From contig CAMTYD010000031.1 in assembly GCA_947085915.1 (NCBI GenBank), forward strand, positions 1 to 57,273: 57,273 nt of DNA, written 5' to 3'. Positions 6,405 to 39,617 of the stretch are shown piece after piece. Under the pieces are notes generated by a model. The model was not told the origin of the DNA, ran no database searches, and was given only the letters and a program-made list of their open reading frames with translations. The position numbers and the translations under genes were made by a program. Origin of the DNA: an uncultured Parcubacteria group bacterium. GTDB taxonomy: Bacteria; Patescibacteriota; Minisyncoccia; Phycocordibacterales; UBA2100. Position 1 is the stretch's first letter. Every line of letters begins with the position of its first letter.

Positions 6405-6747
6405 ACGTCCGCTCTCGTTAGCAGATTCGAGACCCCAGGGTCTTTTTCTGTTTATGGGGCGACGAGATAGCAGTTCAAAAAACCAAGGGATACCCATTCG
6501 ATGATGACGCATATTCGTCTGCGAAGGCGGACTTTAGCGAGGCGGAATATTCAACCCGGCCAGATCTGTCGTGACGGCGACGCTGGCAACATGCAACAGC
6601 AGCGGACGGAGAATCACGAGATCCACTCCCGCTTGATTCAACGCCCCACACCAGGGGAAGATGTTGACGGTCGGGAAGGCACGGAACTGTAGCGGCCCAA
6701 GCCTCAGGGAGATCCAAGGAAAAGCGGATGAATCCGCAACGACATCA
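6405..6747 (+). ncRNA. Candidate structured noncoding RNA of unknown class
   Basis: Bounded by the promoter above and the terminator below. Only short Arg-rich ORFs are present. 6416-6428 can pair with 6730-6741 as a closing helix of 11 bp with one bulge and one mismatch. Confidence 0.4.
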
Positions 6748-6789
6748 GGTACCGGGCAAGCAGACGCGCTTCCCGGTACCTTTTATTTT
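6748..6789 (+). terminator. Intrinsic terminator
   Basis: Perfect 9-bp stem GGTACCGGG/CCCGGTACC followed by TTTTATTTT. Confidence 0.65.
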
Positions 6790-7879
6790 ATGTAAACAAC
6801 CGTCCTATGTCGTTGTAGGTCACTACCACCATGAGGACGACAATGACCGCAACTCCAAACGCATTGAGCATTTGTATGGCAAGGCGGGGTGCAGCGCGGC
6901 GCATGACAGCTTCGACACCGAGTACAAAGAGTCGTCCGCCATCAAGCGCTGGTATCGGGATGAGATTGATGATAGCGAGATTAATAGAGATGAGCGCTGC
7001 AAACATGAGTACCGCACCCAAGCCATTCTGTGAGGCTTCACCGACATAGCTCACAATACCGACGGGTCCGACTACTGAAGCCAAGTCAGGTGCGCCTTGT
7101 AGCGCGCCTTTGAGAAGAATCCACAGATCACCCGCTACCATTTTAAATGCATTGGCTGTCGCGGGGAACGCATCCATAAGAGCCGTGCCCCATGGCACTT
7201 CCTCTGTGGCGATAAGGACAAGCGCGATACCAAGTGCGGGCTGGGCGGCAGCGTTGGGAAGCACTGCATTCGCCGGAATGATACTCGCGGTAGTAATCAC
7301 GCCTTCGTGTATGTAGGAAATGGTCACCGGCTTCCCCGCACGGGCACGCACGAATTCAACTACGCTTTGTGATGTAAGTACTTCGACAGAGCCGCCTCTT
7401 GAATCACTTACACCCGCTATCTCATCTCCCGGCTTGATACCCGCAGCGTCTGCAGGCGAACCTGAAACGACGTCCGATACAATGAGCTGTACAGGCTGAC
7501 CGGGGAGAGCGGTCTGTACGGCCTTTGGCACACCAAGGTGAAGCGCCGTGGCAAAAAGTATCCACGCCACGATTACATTTGCGGTGACGCCCGCAACGAG
7601 CACGATAGCTTGTTTCCACCGCGGCGCGTCTATGAAGCTACCGCGGCCATGCTGAGACTGACCCTCATCACCGAAGAGCCGTACAAATCCTCCAAACGGA
7701 ATCCAATTGAGGGTGTACTCCGTATCCCCTATTTTTCCAAATCGCAAAGCACGGGGTGGATATCCCACACCAAATTCTTCTACCCGCACGCCAAAGAGCT
7801 TCGCAGCAAAAAAGTGTCCGAGCTCATGCGCGACGATAAGGAGGACAAGTATGCCGACAACGAGTAATGCGGTAATCAT
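6788..7879 (-). CDS. rseP: RIP metalloprotease RseP (site-2 protease, M50 family with PDZ domain)
   Basis: HELGHFFAAK zinc motif, PDZ-like middle region, and C-terminal NLIPIPALDGG motif. Confidence 0.9.
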   Translation of the reverse strand: MITALLVVGILVLLIVAHELGHFFAAKLFGVRVEEFGVGYPPRALRFGKIGDTEYTLNWIPFGGFVRLFGDEGQSQHGRGSFIDAPRWKQAIVLVAGVTANVIVAWILFATALHLGVPKAVQTALPGQPVQLIVSDVVSGSPADAAGIKPGDEIAGVSDSRGGSVEVLTSQSVVEFVRARAGKPVTISYIHEGVITTASIIPANAVLPNAAAQPALGIALVLIATEEVPWGTALMDAFPATANAFKMVAGDLWILLKGALQGAPDLASVVGPVGIVSYVGEASQNGLGAVLMFAALISINLAIINLIPIPALDGGRLFVLGVEAVMRRAAPRLAIQMLNAFGVAVIVVLMVVVTYNDIGRLFT

Positions 7880-33608: not shown

Positions 33609-33936
33609 ATATATTTTTCACCTCACGTGGATAATTGATAATTGGACAAAACAGTATTGAGTCCCGGCGACGAGTGGGACTGGCGACGTGGCAGCTGATA
33701 CGCCGCACAGATAGATAGGGATAGGAAGATTCCACTGGACGCGCAATCAGTCTATCCGTAGTACCGTGCTACACATCGTGACACGCCTCTCATGAAATTT
33801 GCATGAAGTTCAGCTGTACCGCACTGATGGTGTGCGTCTTCCGTTCGAATCAGTACCTGCGTTTTACCACGTCGAAAATCTGCTGATTTTGCGACGCGAT
33901 TTTTGCTCTCACTTTGTTCGAAAAAACCGGCTTCGC

Positions 33937-34083
33937 GCGTAGGAATTTCTCCCTCGACTAAATCCGCGCCGTCGCGCGGTTTTGTCTGGGCACCGCCTCA
34001 CGGCGACGCAAGTTTGCGTCGCATCTCTCCGGCGTTCGAATCCTACCCGGGCTGTGCGCAGGCACAGCCCTCCGTCGGAGCCG
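33937..34083 (+). other. tRNA-Asn-derived or T-loop-containing structured segment (unit B)
   Basis: GCGTAGGAATTT...GTTCGAATCCTACCCGG-(9-bp hairpin GGGCTGTGC/GCACAGCCC)-TCCGTCGGAGCCG. Same architecture as unit A. Opposite orientation to the real tRNA-Asn gene. Confidence 0.5.
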
Positions 34084-34089
34084 TATACG

Positions 34090-34116
34090 AAAAAACACCC
34101 TATCGGGTGTCTTTTC
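34090..34116. terminator. Bidirectional terminator hairpin
   Basis: ACACCC-TATC-GGGTGT flanked by an A-run and a T-run. On the minus strand it sits just after the tRNA-Asn 3' end. Confidence 0.6.
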
Positions 34117-34122
34117 TCTCGG

Positions 34123-34421
34123 CTCCGCGGGTAGGATTCGAACCTACAACCAACTCCTTACACGTAATCCCCCTATTACTAAGGGCGTGGACTATATCAT
34201 CATCCCAGTCCTTCAACTGTCGGATGCGAGGCGCTTCGTGCCGGCGTTTGCCGGTACTACTCCTTTGCAGGATAGTCTCTACACCTTTCCCGCCTTAGGC
34301 GGGACTTGGCTCGGGATTGCCCCAGTGGGGTTTCCCCGAATTCACCTCGTTTTTCAATCTCGAATTCCTTCGAGAAGCTGCCTTTTGACAGGGAGCTGCG
34401 CTACCGTTGCGCCACCGCGGA
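34123..34421 (-). tRNA. tRNA-Asn(GUU) interrupted by a group I intron in the anticodon loop
   Basis: 5' exon 34421-34388: TCCGCGG TG GCGC AACGGTA GCGC A GCTCC CTGT. 3' exon 34160-34123: TAA GGAGT TGGTT GTAGG TTCGAAT CCTAC CCGCGGA G. The spliced product folds into a cloverleaf with loop CUGUUAA. U1-A72 plus G73 resemble E. coli tRNA-Asn. Confidence 0.85.
34161..34387 (-). ncRNA. Group I intron (IC3-like, 227 nt, no ORF)
   Basis: The 5' splice site follows a U that can form U.G with GCAG of the intron (P1). The intron ends in G. The core segments CCGAGCCAAG and AAGGTGTAGAGACTA match what I remember of pre-tRNA group I introns such as the Azoarcus tRNA-Ile intron. Confidence 0.8.
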
Positions 34422-34657
34422 ATATTTTGACCGTTGATTTTTAACAACGGCTGCGACTTAGTATAGCCGATGTTGGGGTAAGGTAAAAGACTTTCATAGT
34501 TCATGACAAAACATTCATGACGGCCTTCACGAATCCTTCAGATTGGCCATTTTTCGTGTTTCCTCCCCAATTGTCCATATACCTAAGCGCGGAATGCGGA
34601 TTGTCATACAGCTTCTCATACTTTTCTCAAAAAGAGGTCGCGTATGATACGAGCTCT

Positions 34658-36000: not shown

Positions 36001-36546
36001 TTACGCCAGCAGTTCCTTGAGACGCTTGTTACCTGAAAGGATTCGAGCTTCTTCTTCGCACCATTCTGAAAAGGCATTTCTCTCTGCATTAACTTCTTCT
36101 AGAAAAACACCCCACGCTACCCAACGTACCGCTTCAACCTCTTCAAGGTTCGGCTTTGGCTCTTCTTCTGTCATGCCGACGAGAATCGGACAAATCTCAT
36201 TCTCCATCACCCCAGTGCGCACGAAGGTATATCGATAGGGTGCGACCTCTTCGATAGTAATCGCTTCCATGCGGAGCTCATGAGAAAGCCGGCGCTTCGC
36301 CGCATCAACATTCGACTCATGTAAGCCCGGGTGACCGCAGACGCTATTGGACCAAGCAAGCGGCCACGTCTTTTTGGTATGACTCCTTTGCTGAAGCAAC
36401 AGCTCTCCTTTTCTATTGAAAAGAAACAGAGAGAATCCCCGGTGGAGTGGCGTCGAGGCACCATGCACCAAAGCTTTGGGCATGGTGCCGAGGATGTTGT
36501 TCTCTTCGTCTACCAGAACGACTTCCTCTATCGATTGATGGTTCAT
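36001..36546 (-). CDS. idi: Isopentenyl-diphosphate delta-isomerase, type 1 (Nudix)
   Basis: HRGFSLFLFN..GELLLQQRS..K..WPLAWSNSVCGHP and E..ICPI motifs. ATGA overlap with the upstream gene. Confidence 0.85.
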   Translation of the reverse strand: MNHQSIEEVVLVDEENNILGTMPKALVHGASTPLHRGFSLFLFNRKGELLLQQRSHTKKTWPLAWSNSVCGHPGLHESNVDAAKRRLSHELRMEAITIEEVAPYRYTFVRTGVMENEICPILVGMTEEEPKPNLEEVEAVRWVAWGVFLEEVNAERNAFSEWCEEEARILSGNKRLKELLA

Positions 36547-37460
36547 ACCGAGGCGCCTGAAAGTCCGGGTACTTTCTTTTTCAAAGAAACAACGAGAGAA
36601 GACGCGTCTTCATTCACCACTATGTGGTCAAAAAGATCTTTCCGTTCTCCAAAGAATGCGAGATCCCGTTCCGCGTTCTTGAGACGGTCGTGAATATTGT
36701 CTTCTGTCTCACGTCCGCGCGCGCGAAGCCGGTGAAGAAGTTGACTCAGTCGTGCCCGCTTGCTCCGTCCTGGCGGAAGAAGTCCGAAGGAAAGAACCGA
36801 GCGACGGCCATAGTGACGCGCAAGACCCTGGAGAAGCCCCATCTCTGTGACGACAAGCGGGATTTTCCCTTTGTTCCAGATTGCCTCGATATCCGTACTC
36901 CGGTATCCATACTGACGATTCTCGGTAGAAGACGGTATCCGCGTCACGGCGACGATAGACCCCGCCTTTTGCATGCGTTCAAATTCGGTCTCGGTTGTAT
37001 ACAGGTATTCTCCATCGTCACCGGGTTTTGGAGCGCGCGTAGTCAGGATTGGCACTTTAGCAGCATAGTCGGAACACGCATGCGCAAGCATGGTCGTTAT
37101 TGTCGACTTGCCCACGCCGGAGGGTCCGGTGAACGCGAGGATGTACCGGGAGAACTTCTGTGGAATCTCCACAGTGACCGTCGCTTCATACGCGACTTCG
37201 TATACACGGAGACCCTCTTCCGTCACGTGGGAGAGGCGCATGCGCGGGCGTACCTGTTGTCCGATGAAGGGTTCGTCAGAGATGAGCGACCCGAGAACCC
37301 GGCGACCATTCTGTAATTCAATAAGACCGATCTGTCTCGGCCGCCTGCCGAAGCGCGCAGGCGGGTGTGCGAGTGTCGTGAATGACATAACGATTCCGGG
37401 GAGCTGTTTTTCTTGTTCGCGCTTCTGCGCGCGGTGGACGATAGGTGCGGAGTAGCTCAT
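36543..37460 (-). CDS. Fusion: DUF35-type OB-fold domain (N-terminal, no zinc ribbon) plus guanylate-kinase-like P-loop kinase (C-terminal)
   Basis: The N-terminal ~100 aa show a DUF35 OB-fold-like pattern (GIVMSFTTLAHPPARFG...IGLIELQNGRRVLG...IGQQVRPRM). The C-terminus has GPSGVGKST, LTTRAPKPGDDGEYLY, YGY and a GK-like lid. ATGA start/stop overlaps with thiolase and idi. Confidence 0.7.
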   Translation of the reverse strand: MSYSAPIVHRAQKREQEKQLPGIVMSFTTLAHPPARFGRRPRQIGLIELQNGRRVLGSLISDEPFIGQQVRPRMRLSHVTEEGLRVYEVAYEATVTVEIPQKFSRYILAFTGPSGVGKSTITTMLAHACSDYAAKVPILTTRAPKPGDDGEYLYTTETEFERMQKAGSIVAVTRIPSSTENRQYGYRSTDIEAIWNKGKIPLVVTEMGLLQGLARHYGRRSVLSFGLLPPGRSKRARLSQLLHRLRARGRETEDNIHDRLKNAERDLAFFGERKDLFDHIVVNEDASSLVVSLKKKVPGLSGASV

Positions 37461-38581
37461 ACGTTTGTATTTTCTAGAATATGGATACCACAAGTCGCGC
37501 CCGCACCGCCGAAATTGTGGGCAAGACCATATCGCGCCGATGTACGCTTGAGACTCTTGCCGATATCGATGAGTTGCTTAATGCCGGTGGCCGCAACGGG
37601 ATGACCGCAGGCCTTCAGTCCCCCGCCCATGTTTACAAAAAGCGGTGTGCGACCCGCAAAGAGGTCTTCATAAATCGTAATCCCCTCTCCTTTTTTTGCA
37701 AATCCCAAATCCTCCATGTTGATAACAGCGGCGATGGAGAAGCAGTCATGCGTTTCGAGCACGCGTATATCTTTTCGTTCGATGTCCGCTTCTCGCAGAG
37801 CCTGACTCATCGCCATGCGCGTCGCGGGGAAACTCACAATAGTCGGCCTCTCAGTGATACTGAGGGTATCACTTGCAATCTGGCTTGCGGCGAGGCGCAT
37901 ACCGCTCGTATGCGTAGTTGAAAGGATACAGGCAGCAGCTCCGTCGCTAATCGGTGAACAGTCGAGGAGGCGGAGCGGGTCGGATACGAACGGACTCGCG
38001 GTTACCGCTTCCGGAGAAAGCTCATGCCGGAACTGCGCAAAAGCATTCTCCGTCGCGTTCTTGTGGTGCACCGAGCTCACGATACTCAGCTGTTCGCGTG
38101 TGAGACCGAATTCGTACATATACCGCTTAGCGATGAGGCCAAAAATCCCGGGAAACGTGAGTCCGGATGGAGCGTCGAGCTCACTATCAGCCGCCCCCAT
38201 CAAGGCCTCTGAAATAGCATCACTCGAGGCATCGGTCATCTTTTCTACACCGAGCACGAGGACGGTTTTTGCCCGGCCGCTTTCGAGAAATGCACAGGCT
38301 GTATGAATCGCGAGCGCGCCCGAACCACAGGCTGCCTCAACCCGCAGTGCAGGCGGATGATGAGGCAAAAGCGACGAAGCGAGTGCCGCAATGTGCGCCT
38401 GATTATTCGTGGCTTCAGAGAGCATATTTGCAACAACGACGAGGTCGATATCACGTGCATTCAGCTTGGATGAGGCGAGCGCCGCTTCGATGGCTTCACT
38501 CATCAAATCGCGCAGACTTTTATCCCACCACTCGCCAAAACGCGTAAGTCCGGAACCAGCAAGAAAAATGTCTTTTTGCAT
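37457..38581 (-). CDS. Thiolase (archaeal-type acetyl-CoA acetyltransferase)
   Basis: Active-site Cys context (VEAACGSGALA) and a C-terminal H..G.GG.CG pattern. Start set to ATG 38581, just after the hmgS stop. Confidence 0.85.
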   Translation of the reverse strand: MQKDIFLAGSGLTRFGEWWDKSLRDLMSEAIEAALASSKLNARDIDLVVVANMLSEATNNQAHIAALASSLLPHHPPALRVEAACGSGALAIHTACAFLESGRAKTVLVLGVEKMTDASSDAISEALMGAADSELDAPSGLTFPGIFGLIAKRYMYEFGLTREQLSIVSSVHHKNATENAFAQFRHELSPEAVTASPFVSDPLRLLDCSPISDGAAACILSTTHTSGMRLAASQIASDTLSITERPTIVSFPATRMAMSQALREADIERKDIRVLETHDCFSIAAVINMEDLGFAKKGEGITIYEDLFAGRTPLFVNMGGGLKACGHPVAATGIKQLIDIGKSLKRTSARYGLAHNFGGAGATCGIHILENTNV

Positions 38582-38585
38582 ACGA

Positions 38586-39617
38586 TTATACGGAAAGTGC
38601 TCCGGAGTGTTGTAAGTACTGACTGTAATCCAAGTATGCGTGCTCACGGCTGTCTACGGGGAGAGACTTTCCGGTCTTCAATGCGGTCATGAGGACGGCA
38701 TCGCATCCCGAACCTGATCCGTAAGAAACGAGGAGAATTCGTTGTCCTTTTTTTATCTTCTCGAGCACTGAGACGAGTCCGATGAGCGAACATGCGCTAT
38801 AGGTGTTACCGATGGTAGGGACAACAAAGCCGGCACTCATTTGCTCCTTCGTGATGCCGAATTCCTTGGCGATGCGCATCGGAAATTTTGCATTGGGCAT
38901 GTGGAAGACGACGTGATCAATTCCCGGCAATTTCACCTTCCATGCCGTGAGAGCTGCTTTGATTGTCTCGCGAACGTGTTGGAAATAGCCGGGCTCTCCG
39001 GTAAATCGGCCCGCGTGACGCGGATAGGATTCTCCTTCCGCCCGCCAAAAGTCCGGAGTGTCTGTTGTATATGAAAGTGTCTTTTCTATGCGGCAGAGAG
39101 CGTTTTTGTGTGTCGCCGACCCCAAGAGAAATGCCGCGGCACCAGCCGCCGCTGTATATTCGAGCGCATCACCCGGTTGACCCTGGGCAGTGTCCGTCCC
39201 AACCGCCAGACCAAAACGAACTTGTCCGCTTCGGACAAAGCTGTCGATAATCTGAAGACTCGCTGTCCCCGCTTTACAAGCGAACTCTAAATCTGCTGCA
39301 TGCGAAAAAGGATTCAACTTCAGTGCCGATACAAGCATGCCGCTCGTCGGCTTTACTGCATAGGGATGAGACTCCGACCCGACGAATATCGCGGAGACTC
39401 GAGACGGCGGGACGCGTGACACCTCGAGAGCGGTCCGCGCCGCTTCAAACGCCATGGTGAAACTATCTTCTCCCACTCCCGCGACCGATTTCTCCTCCAC
39501 ACCAAGACCTGCCAGAAGCGCCTGCGCATCCTGCTGCCAATGACGTGCGATGTCGGATGTACGAATACGATATTTTGGCAGGTACACGCCGAAGCCGAGA
39601 ATTGCTGAGTGGCCCAT
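38586..39617 (-). CDS. Hydroxymethylglutaryl-CoA synthase (archaeal/short type)
   Basis: ILGFGVYLPKYRI..., Cys context ACKAGT, ~343 aa. Adjacent to the thiolase as in archaeal loci. Confidence 0.85.
   Translation of the reverse strand: MGHSAILGFGVYLPKYRIRTSDIARHWQQDAQALLAGLGVEEKSVAGVGEDSFTMAFEAARTALEVSRVPPSRVSAIFVGSESHPYAVKPTSGMLVSALKLNPFSHAADLEFACKAGTASLQIIDSFVRSGQVRFGLAVGTDTAQGQPGDALEYTAAAGAAAFLLGSATHKNALCRIEKTLSYTTDTPDFWRAEGESYPRHAGRFTGEPGYFQHVRETIKAALTAWKVKLPGIDHVVFHMPNAKFPMRIAKEFGITKEQMSAGFVVPTIGNTYSACSLIGLVSVLEKIKKGQRILLVSYGSGSGCDAVLMTALKTGKSLPVDSREHAYLDYSQYLQHSGALSV

Follow-up and report, generated by a model that had tools for sequence, protein, structure and literature searches.

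The sequence analysed here (the window) is a 57,273-nt stretch of bacterial chromosome that encodes MreB, peptide deformylase, a formyltransferase, a two-component system and an ABC transporter, together with an ice-binding-like protein and an FG-GAP/ASPIC protein. Its minus strand carries a tRNA-Asn(GUU) gene in two pieces. The 5' exon (34388-34421, 34 nt, TCCGCGGTGGCGCAACGGTAGCGCAGCTCCCTGT) supplies the 5' strand of the acceptor stem, the D arm, the 5' strand of the anticodon stem and the loop residues C32, U33, G34 and U35, and the 3' exon (34123-34160, 38 nt, TAAGGAGTTGGTTGTAGGTTCGAATCCTACCCGCGGAG) supplies U36, A37 and A38, the 3' strand of the anticodon stem, the variable loop, the T arm, the 3' strand of the acceptor stem and G73. 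Between them, also on the minus strand, lies a group I intron of 227 nt without an ORF (34161-34387), which starts with CAAAAGGCAGC and ends with ACGTG. The first-pass annotation had proposed these coordinates and lengths (34/227/38 nt), and all of them were found to be present. The gene does not encode CCA; the bases after the 3' exon are CCG.

When the exons were joined in silico, ARAGORN called tRNA-Asn(gtt) with a 7-bp acceptor stem including U1-A72, the D stem GCGC/GCGC, the T arm GTAGG-TTCGAAT-CCTAC and discriminator G, in agreement with the normal cloverleaf and the arms that had been read from the sequence at first. The anticodon loop after ligation is CUGUUAA. Both G73 and GUU, which are tRNA-Asn identity elements, are present in the spliced tRNA. 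As had been anticipated, a standard scan misses the gene: across all 57 kb of the window, ARAGORN in its default mode makes no tRNA call at all. A promoter-like site (TTTACC, a 16-nt spacer, TATACT; 34460-34487, minus strand) precedes tRNA position 1 by about 39 nt; it has 9 of 12 matches in a consensus scan, a pattern match only, and may act as the promoter of the gene. Downstream, a terminator-like hairpin (ACACCC-GATA-GGGTGT, then a T run; 34090-34110, minus strand) was read from the sequence, and the scan also listed it on the plus strand.

Secondary structure of the intron

The group I assignment made in the first-pass annotation was borne out by Rfam: the intron gives a significant match to RF00028 (Intron_gpI) at 79.3 bits (threshold 50, E 1.5e-18) over 34169-34401 of the minus strand, which spans model positions 1-253 and is thus full length. 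This match is the sole Rfam hit at gathering score within the window. The secondary structure (cloverleaf, P1-P9 and P9.0) was drawn by hand on the window sequence and scored on 18 family members aligned with MAFFT. Standard pairs form in 95.7% of the cells versus 35-45% when the partners were slid by 1-3 columns, a measure that is favoured by drawing the structure on the window sequence; the counts of compensatory changes, which are not favoured in this way, are 59 of 90 pairs (288 cells) versus 16-25 pairs (30-64 cells) in the slid controls. These observed values were reached by none of 500 shuffles. All four tRNA stems covary among the 18 homologues, and the same is true of P3, P4, P5, P6a and P8 in a core with the P3/P7 pseudoknot. 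A P3-P9 core can therefore be folded, and the P1-P9 structure drawn on the window sequence is supported across the 18 homologues.

Taken in the order of transcription (all on the minus strand), P1 (34378-34391) was read from the sequence and pairs exon CUGU plus intron C1 with intron G6-G10 (GGCAG) around an AAAA loop. It is followed by the P2 hairpin (34358-34375) with a GGAA (GNRA) loop, compensatory changes in 6 of 7 pairs and 99% of cells paired. The 5' strand of P3 (CGAGGUG, 34343-34349) finds its partner at 34227-34233, with compensatory changes in 3 of 7 pairs and again 99% of cells paired. The P4-P5-P6-P6a domain (34283-34339) includes CCGAGCCAAG and shows compensatory changes in 5 of 6 pairs of P4, 2 of 4 of P5 and 6 of 6 of P6a. 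The 5' strand of P7 (GAGACUA with a bulged A, within AAGGUGUAGAGACUA; 34273-34279) is invariant in 18 of 18 sequences and pairs with 34189-34194. Two extra hairpins (34238-34272), one P7.1-like with a GCAA loop and the other P7.2-like, stand between it and the 3' strand of P3 (CGCCUCG, 34227-34233), which forms the pseudoknot with P7 and belongs to a covarying helix. P8 (34203-34224) shows compensatory changes in 6 of 7 pairs with 79% of cells paired, being a variable arm that is imperfectly aligned. The 3' strand of P7 (UAGUCC, within GAUAUAGUCC; 34189-34194) is supported by the Rfam match and the alignment, and the intron closes with P9.0 (AC/GU, both pairs covarying), the P9 hairpin with a GUAA loop and the terminal G at 34161 (34161-34188). 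GNRA loops thus occur in three places: L2, L7.1 and L9. Since P7 and the exon part of P1 are invariant, they are conserved but add no covariation evidence. There is no evident P10, as the 3' exon UAAGG has no complement beside the guide sequence, and alignment of the exons would therefore probably have to rely on the anticodon stem.

Compared with the RF00028 consensus, the two hairpins between P7 and P3 constitute an insertion of 37 nt; they show compensatory changes in 2 of 4 and 7 of 7 pairs among the 18 homologues. Their place between P7 and the 3' strand of P3 is the P7.1/P7.2 site of subgroup IA introns. Pre-tRNA introns of subgroup IC3 (the Azoarcus/Anabaena type) have a compact core and are not known to carry anything between the 5' strand of P7 and the 3' strand of P3, so the window intron does not appear to be a plain Azoarcus-type IC3 intron. 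The first reading had likened two core motifs to those of Azoarcus and cyanobacterial tRNA introns. Both are real (CCGAGCCAAG at intron positions 74-83 and AAGGTGTAGAGACTA at intron positions 101-115), but they are not diagnostic of that type, and the intron also has the two extra covarying hairpins.

Splice sites and predicted splicing pathway

At the 5' splice site exon CUGU pairs with intron GCAG (intron positions 7-10), which places a U35.G7 wobble at the junction, in accord with the U.G pairing to an internal GCAG that had been proposed. The four exon-guide pairs including this U.G are invariant in 18 of 18 sequences, and the next P1 pair on the intron side varies between C-G, G-C, A-U and G.U. 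At the 3' splice site P9.0 joins the two nt after GAUAUAGUCC with the two nt before the last G; both pairs form in 119 of 120 listed family members, with 13 nucleotide combinations. A terminal G, noted at first for the window copy, is found there and in all 120 listed introns. The predicted ligated product is identical at 72 of 72 positions to uninterrupted tRNA-Asn genes on two metagenome contigs (L296 and L361), and the intron-less gene of L296 scores 70.2 bits with the Rfam tRNA model. On the strength of the invariant U.G, the P9.0 pairing and these natural intron-less genes, the product is tRNA-Asn(GUU) with the insertion between U35 and U36. The proposed split after position 35 therefore stands, with the Rfam match, the covariation among homologues, P9.0 in 119 of 120 listed introns and the natural intron-less twin behind it.

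The window very probably contains a working tRNA-Asn gene of a bacterium related to a MAG labelled Candidatus Nomurabacteria (Patescibacteria), from which an ORF-less group I intron between U35 and U36 would be spliced. Catalysis and splicing by this copy are predicted from conservation, and we infer that it is the working tRNA-Asn gene of the cell, perhaps its only one. In the proposed pathway a single precursor would be transcribed from the sigma-70-like promoter to the hairpin terminator, and the intron would fold into the P3-P9 core, braced by the GNRA loops on P2 and P9 and by the two P7-P3 hairpins. P1 would align CUGU, the last nucleotides of the exon, with GCAG as the internal guide, and the wobble U35.G would define the 5' splice site, which free guanosine bound at P7 would attack. 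P9.0 would then put the terminal G (34161) into the guanosine pocket, allowing the 3'-OH of U35 to attack the 3' splice site. Exon ligation would restore the loop CUGUUAA, and the tRNA would be completed by RNase P, 3' trimming and CCA addition.

Three other readings were weighed. It is conceivable, but unlikely, that the intron uses group I chemistry without being autonomous, in that a host protein or chaperone is needed or proteins bind to a platform formed by the P7.1/P7.2-like hairpins. Other systems are known in which proteins assist group I splicing, and in the window P1 is short (5 bp), no P10 is visible and the peripheral hairpins go beyond the consensus core. However, the three GNRA loops and the compact GC-rich core resemble those of small self-sufficient bacterial introns, and no candidate cofactor gene is linked to the intron in the window. 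That this copy is a decayed, splicing-dead remnant in a tRNA-Asn pseudogene, with another gene supplying tRNA-Asn, appears very improbable to us. Such decay would fit an endonuclease ORF that was lost from, or never present in, the window copy, and a 57-kb window in which no tRNA of any kind is called. Against it, every column that does not vary in the alignment of 18 sequences (the window included) is intact in the window copy and every stem is paired, the exons are identical to working-looking genes of L143, L296 and L361, and the covariation of the tRNA stems across the family indicates selection on the tRNA product.

Splice sites shifted upstream by 2 nt have virtually no chance of being the true ones. 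They correspond to a tRNA-Thr(UGU) whose loop would be CUUGUAA, and ARAGORN with introns allowed (-i) reports tRNA-Thr(tgt) with a 227-nt intron. The shifted boundaries likewise follow a U and end in G, but in P1 the shifted U is paired with A instead of G. The sites are placed at U35 and G34161 by the invariant U.G and by the covariation of P9.0, the Asn junction occurs in nature as an uninterrupted gene, and U1-A72 and G73 are features of tRNA-Asn in E. coli and B. subtilis. The Thr call arises because a UGU/GUGU repeat lets both splice sites slide by 2 nt. Another family member, L135, is likewise mislabelled tRNA-Thr(tgt) by ARAGORN with introns allowed. Because of this slide, automated intron-aware scans will misname the family.

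Family size and distribution

Relatives of the tRNA-Asn(GUU) intron were collected with sequence patterns. The pattern AGCCAAG...AAGGTGTAGAGACTA was too general in viral contigs (at least 120 loci), and it was replaced by a pattern that ties the 3' strand of P7 to a 3' exon starting with UAA and to the T loop. This 3'-exon-tied pattern matched 17 viral contigs and at least 120 loci in species-representative genomes. A tRNA-Asn with a 5' exon ending in CUGU and a 3' exon starting with UAA was found at 112 of the 120 listed genome loci and at 7 viral loci. The listed genome loci have U1-A72 and discriminator G, and some phage copies start with G1. When 14 homologous loci were tested, 11 passed the Rfam threshold on their own at 62-100 bits. 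The first-pass annotation had considered an Asn host less usual, which holds for the literature searched but not for public genomes, given the 112 of 120 listed loci.

The hosts among the listed loci are overwhelmingly Patescibacteria lineages, namely Saccharibacteria, Paceibacterota/Parcubacteria, Uhr-, Magasanikii-, Moran- and Peregrinibacteria, and Microgenomates. A few listed loci are labelled Omnitrophota, Elusimicrobia, Planctomycetales, Oligoflexia or Gammaproteobacteria, the last label being carried by eight MAGs (L145, L176, L199, L200, L217, L225, L236 and L249). The tRNA-Asn exons of L200 are those of L146, L165 and L174, which are labelled as lineages of the candidate phyla radiation (CPR), and since such exons are identical to those of CPR-labelled loci, some of the non-CPR taxonomic labels or the binning look doubtful. 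One Elusimicrobia-labelled contig (L221) carries, besides its tRNA-Asn group I intron, a group II intron domain at 6742-6818 (48.9 bits).

Among the viral contigs, 58 of the 120 listed matches to the more general pattern (L001-L120) lie inside intron-containing tRNA calls of ARAGORN. These 58 calls are mostly Leu(UAA), with Arg(UCU), Phe, Lys, Thr, Gln and others, the anticodons being provisional as the splice sites are ambiguous. According to this rough survey of phage contigs, many tRNAs beyond the classical list may serve as hosts, which makes a new host less surprising. On one viral contig (L131) a GOLLD RNA (312-770, 155 bits) lies beside a tRNA array with an intron-containing tRNA-Asn.

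Putative endonuclease ORFs, empty sites and possible mobility

The lengths of the 120 listed introns are bimodal, with 81 introns of 180-352 nt (the window copy included) and 38 of 450-723 nt; the 109-nt extraction from L166 is probably spurious. The extra sequence of the long introns (L171, L146, L163, L174 and L187 among them) is located in the P1 loop, and in most, not all, of the 38, about one third of the listed copies, it contains a conserved ORF of about 100 aa with the motifs CxxC...HH...CxxCH. Weak Pfam HNH matches were found in 12 of 15 members, all below the Pfam threshold, and a profile of the ORF matches the endonuclease (En) domain of the group II intron maturase 6me0_C at E 3e-5. 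The product is likely an HNH-like homing endonuclease aimed at the tRNA-Asn anticodon region. It would cut intron-less tRNA-Asn genes and so drive homing of the long copies. The window intron has no ORF and hence no intron-encoded homing endonuclease; it is therefore probably a passive member that is no longer independently mobile. Two further ORF-less introns (L143, 2463-2805, minus strand; L220, 5169-5513, plus strand) have an extra hairpin of some 44-50 nt inserted in the P1 loop; it may be an endonuclease remnant, as it sits in the same place as the endonuclease gene of the long introns.

Natural empty sites are common: at least 120 intron-less tRNA-Asn genes with the same anticodon arm were found in metagenomes, and for four exon sets both an intron-containing and an intron-less version exist. 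The closest relative among the loci compared is L143, a MAG labelled Candidatus Nomurabacteria, in which the flanking genes share 60-93% aa identity with those of the window in a rearranged order; its exons are identical to those of the window, its intron is 91.6% identical, and the extra hairpin in its P1 loop measures 44 nt. By the database labels of such related MAGs, the window is assigned to the Patescibacteria. L329 has up to 93% aa identity to the region of the window at 6.8-14.7 kb and an uninterrupted tRNA-Asn gene, so that the identical target site is polymorphic, with the intron in L143 and without it in L329. Intron-less tRNA-Asn genes identical or near-identical to the spliced product of the window were seen in L296 (2232-2303), L361, L329 (7515-7586) and L278. 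In these four and in L161 and L190 the tRNA-Asn gene is near a def-fmt block; the window has its def-fmt block at 11.9-13.3 kb, roughly 20 kb distant from the tRNA, and this points to a rearrangement. As far as can be judged from sequence comparison, the distribution fits a homing intron that has been repeatedly gained and lost.

As the intron occupies one fixed site in much of the Patescibacteria and is found in phage tRNA arrays too, one may ask if it is a selected checkpoint in these minimal genomes and not mere passenger DNA, with phages as the vector between phyla. We regard this as quite unlikely. If it were true, the supply of mature tRNA-Asn could depend on ribozyme folding and on free guanosine nucleotides; the intron could equally shield the gene from endonucleases or integrases directed at the anticodon region of tRNA-Asn.

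Comparison with known group I introns

Group I introns were reportedly found by Reinhold-Hurek and Shub in 1992 in tRNA-Ile(CAU) of Azoarcus and tRNA-Arg(CCU) of Agrobacterium. Like the window intron, these are small, ORF-less bacterial introns in a tRNA anticodon loop; CCGAGCCAAG and AAGGUGUAGAGACUA occur in the core of both, P2 and P9 end in GNRA loops, and P1 is formed on anticodon-loop sequence. They differ in the host tRNA and in the insertion site, which is 36/37 versus 35/36 in the window. Hairpins between P7 and P3 are not known in the Azoarcus and Anabaena pre-tRNA introns or in IC3 introns; the window intron has two that covary.

The tRNA-Leu(UAA) intron of cyanobacteria and plastids is inserted at U34/A35, has no ORF and is largely vertically inherited. 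The Asn family resembles it in being widespread in a whole lineage and missed by tRNA finders, but unlike it shows presence and absence among close relatives and includes endonuclease-bearing copies. BLAST of the locus against phage genomes gave a 42-nt core match only, in T7-like phages (including Escherichia phage Sekstaphage-1). The match has 90% identity from the 3' strand of P4 to P7 and the rest is dissimilar; the phage intron is located in a protein-coding gene, with an HNH endonuclease gene annotated adjacent to it.

A parallel to the long members of the Asn family is the Synechocystis tRNA-fMet intron, which also sits in the anticodon loop and has the gene for the homing endonuclease I-Ssp6803I inserted in P1 (Table 1 of PMC3073962). 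I-Ssp6803I belongs to the PD-(D/E)XK type, whereas the ORF of the Asn family is HNH-like and the window copy has none. Genes for tRNA-fMet and tRNA-Ile2 have been missed because of group I introns (tRNAscan-SE 2.0, PMC8450103), tRNA introns in Arg(UCU) and Leu(UAA) have been described in Beggiatoaceae in a Thiomargarita paper (PMC4853749), and group I introns have been mentioned in "some tRNAs" of CPR genomes without naming the tRNAs (PMC8172020). These three papers deal with the same apparent absence of tRNAs from annotation, and tRNA-Asn(GUU) and the 35/36 site are not named in them. No paper naming a group I intron in tRNA-Asn was found in the full-text literature searched. The element type is thus well known and tRNA introns in CPR genomes have been remarked on before, but the host tRNA, the 35/36 site and the size of the family are undescribed as far as we have searched.

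Implications for annotation

Because ARAGORN finds nothing in default mode and mislabels the gene as Thr in intron mode, tRNA-Asn will seem to be missing from the genome of the window and from many other Patescibacteria genomes. Such apparent loss distorts completeness checks and claims of reduced translation machinery. The mechanism is textbook group I splicing and the conceptual novelty is therefore small; what the locus adds is Asn(GUU) as a host tRNA and 35/36 as an insertion site, neither of which is mentioned in the literature searched. The locus is of value chiefly for annotation practice and as a way into a large and so far undescribed family of introns. With endonuclease-bearing copies, endonuclease-free copies and natural empty sites, this family is a ready system for intron homing and loss in uncultivated bacteria and phages.

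Other features of the neighbourhood

Directly after the tRNA-Asn terminator there is a structured element of about 169 nt (33921-34089, minus strand), and the same element follows an intron-containing tRNA-Asn in L209 (2216-2357, plus strand). The two copies have in common the single-stranded motifs CGUAURCGGCUCCGA, UCGAACGCCGGAG and GAGGCG and a GACG loop. They form three hairpins whose stems differ between the window and L209 with the pairing kept, and the fold has z = -3.9. Rfam gave no match to the element even with the cut-off relaxed to E<=10, and it was not called as a tRNA or tmRNA. A tRNA-like string downstream of the gene (GGTAGGATTCGAACGCCGGAG) was considered as a tRNA 3' end duplicated by integration, which was rejected as no second copy was found within 3 mismatches. 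Elsewhere on the minus strand (36543-39617), one gene encodes an OB fold of the DUF35/ChsH2 type fused to a guanylate-kinase-like P-loop domain, and it adjoins thiolase-like and HMG-CoA-synthase-like genes. The fusion is unusual, and the cluster is unexpected in a Patescibacteria-like genome.
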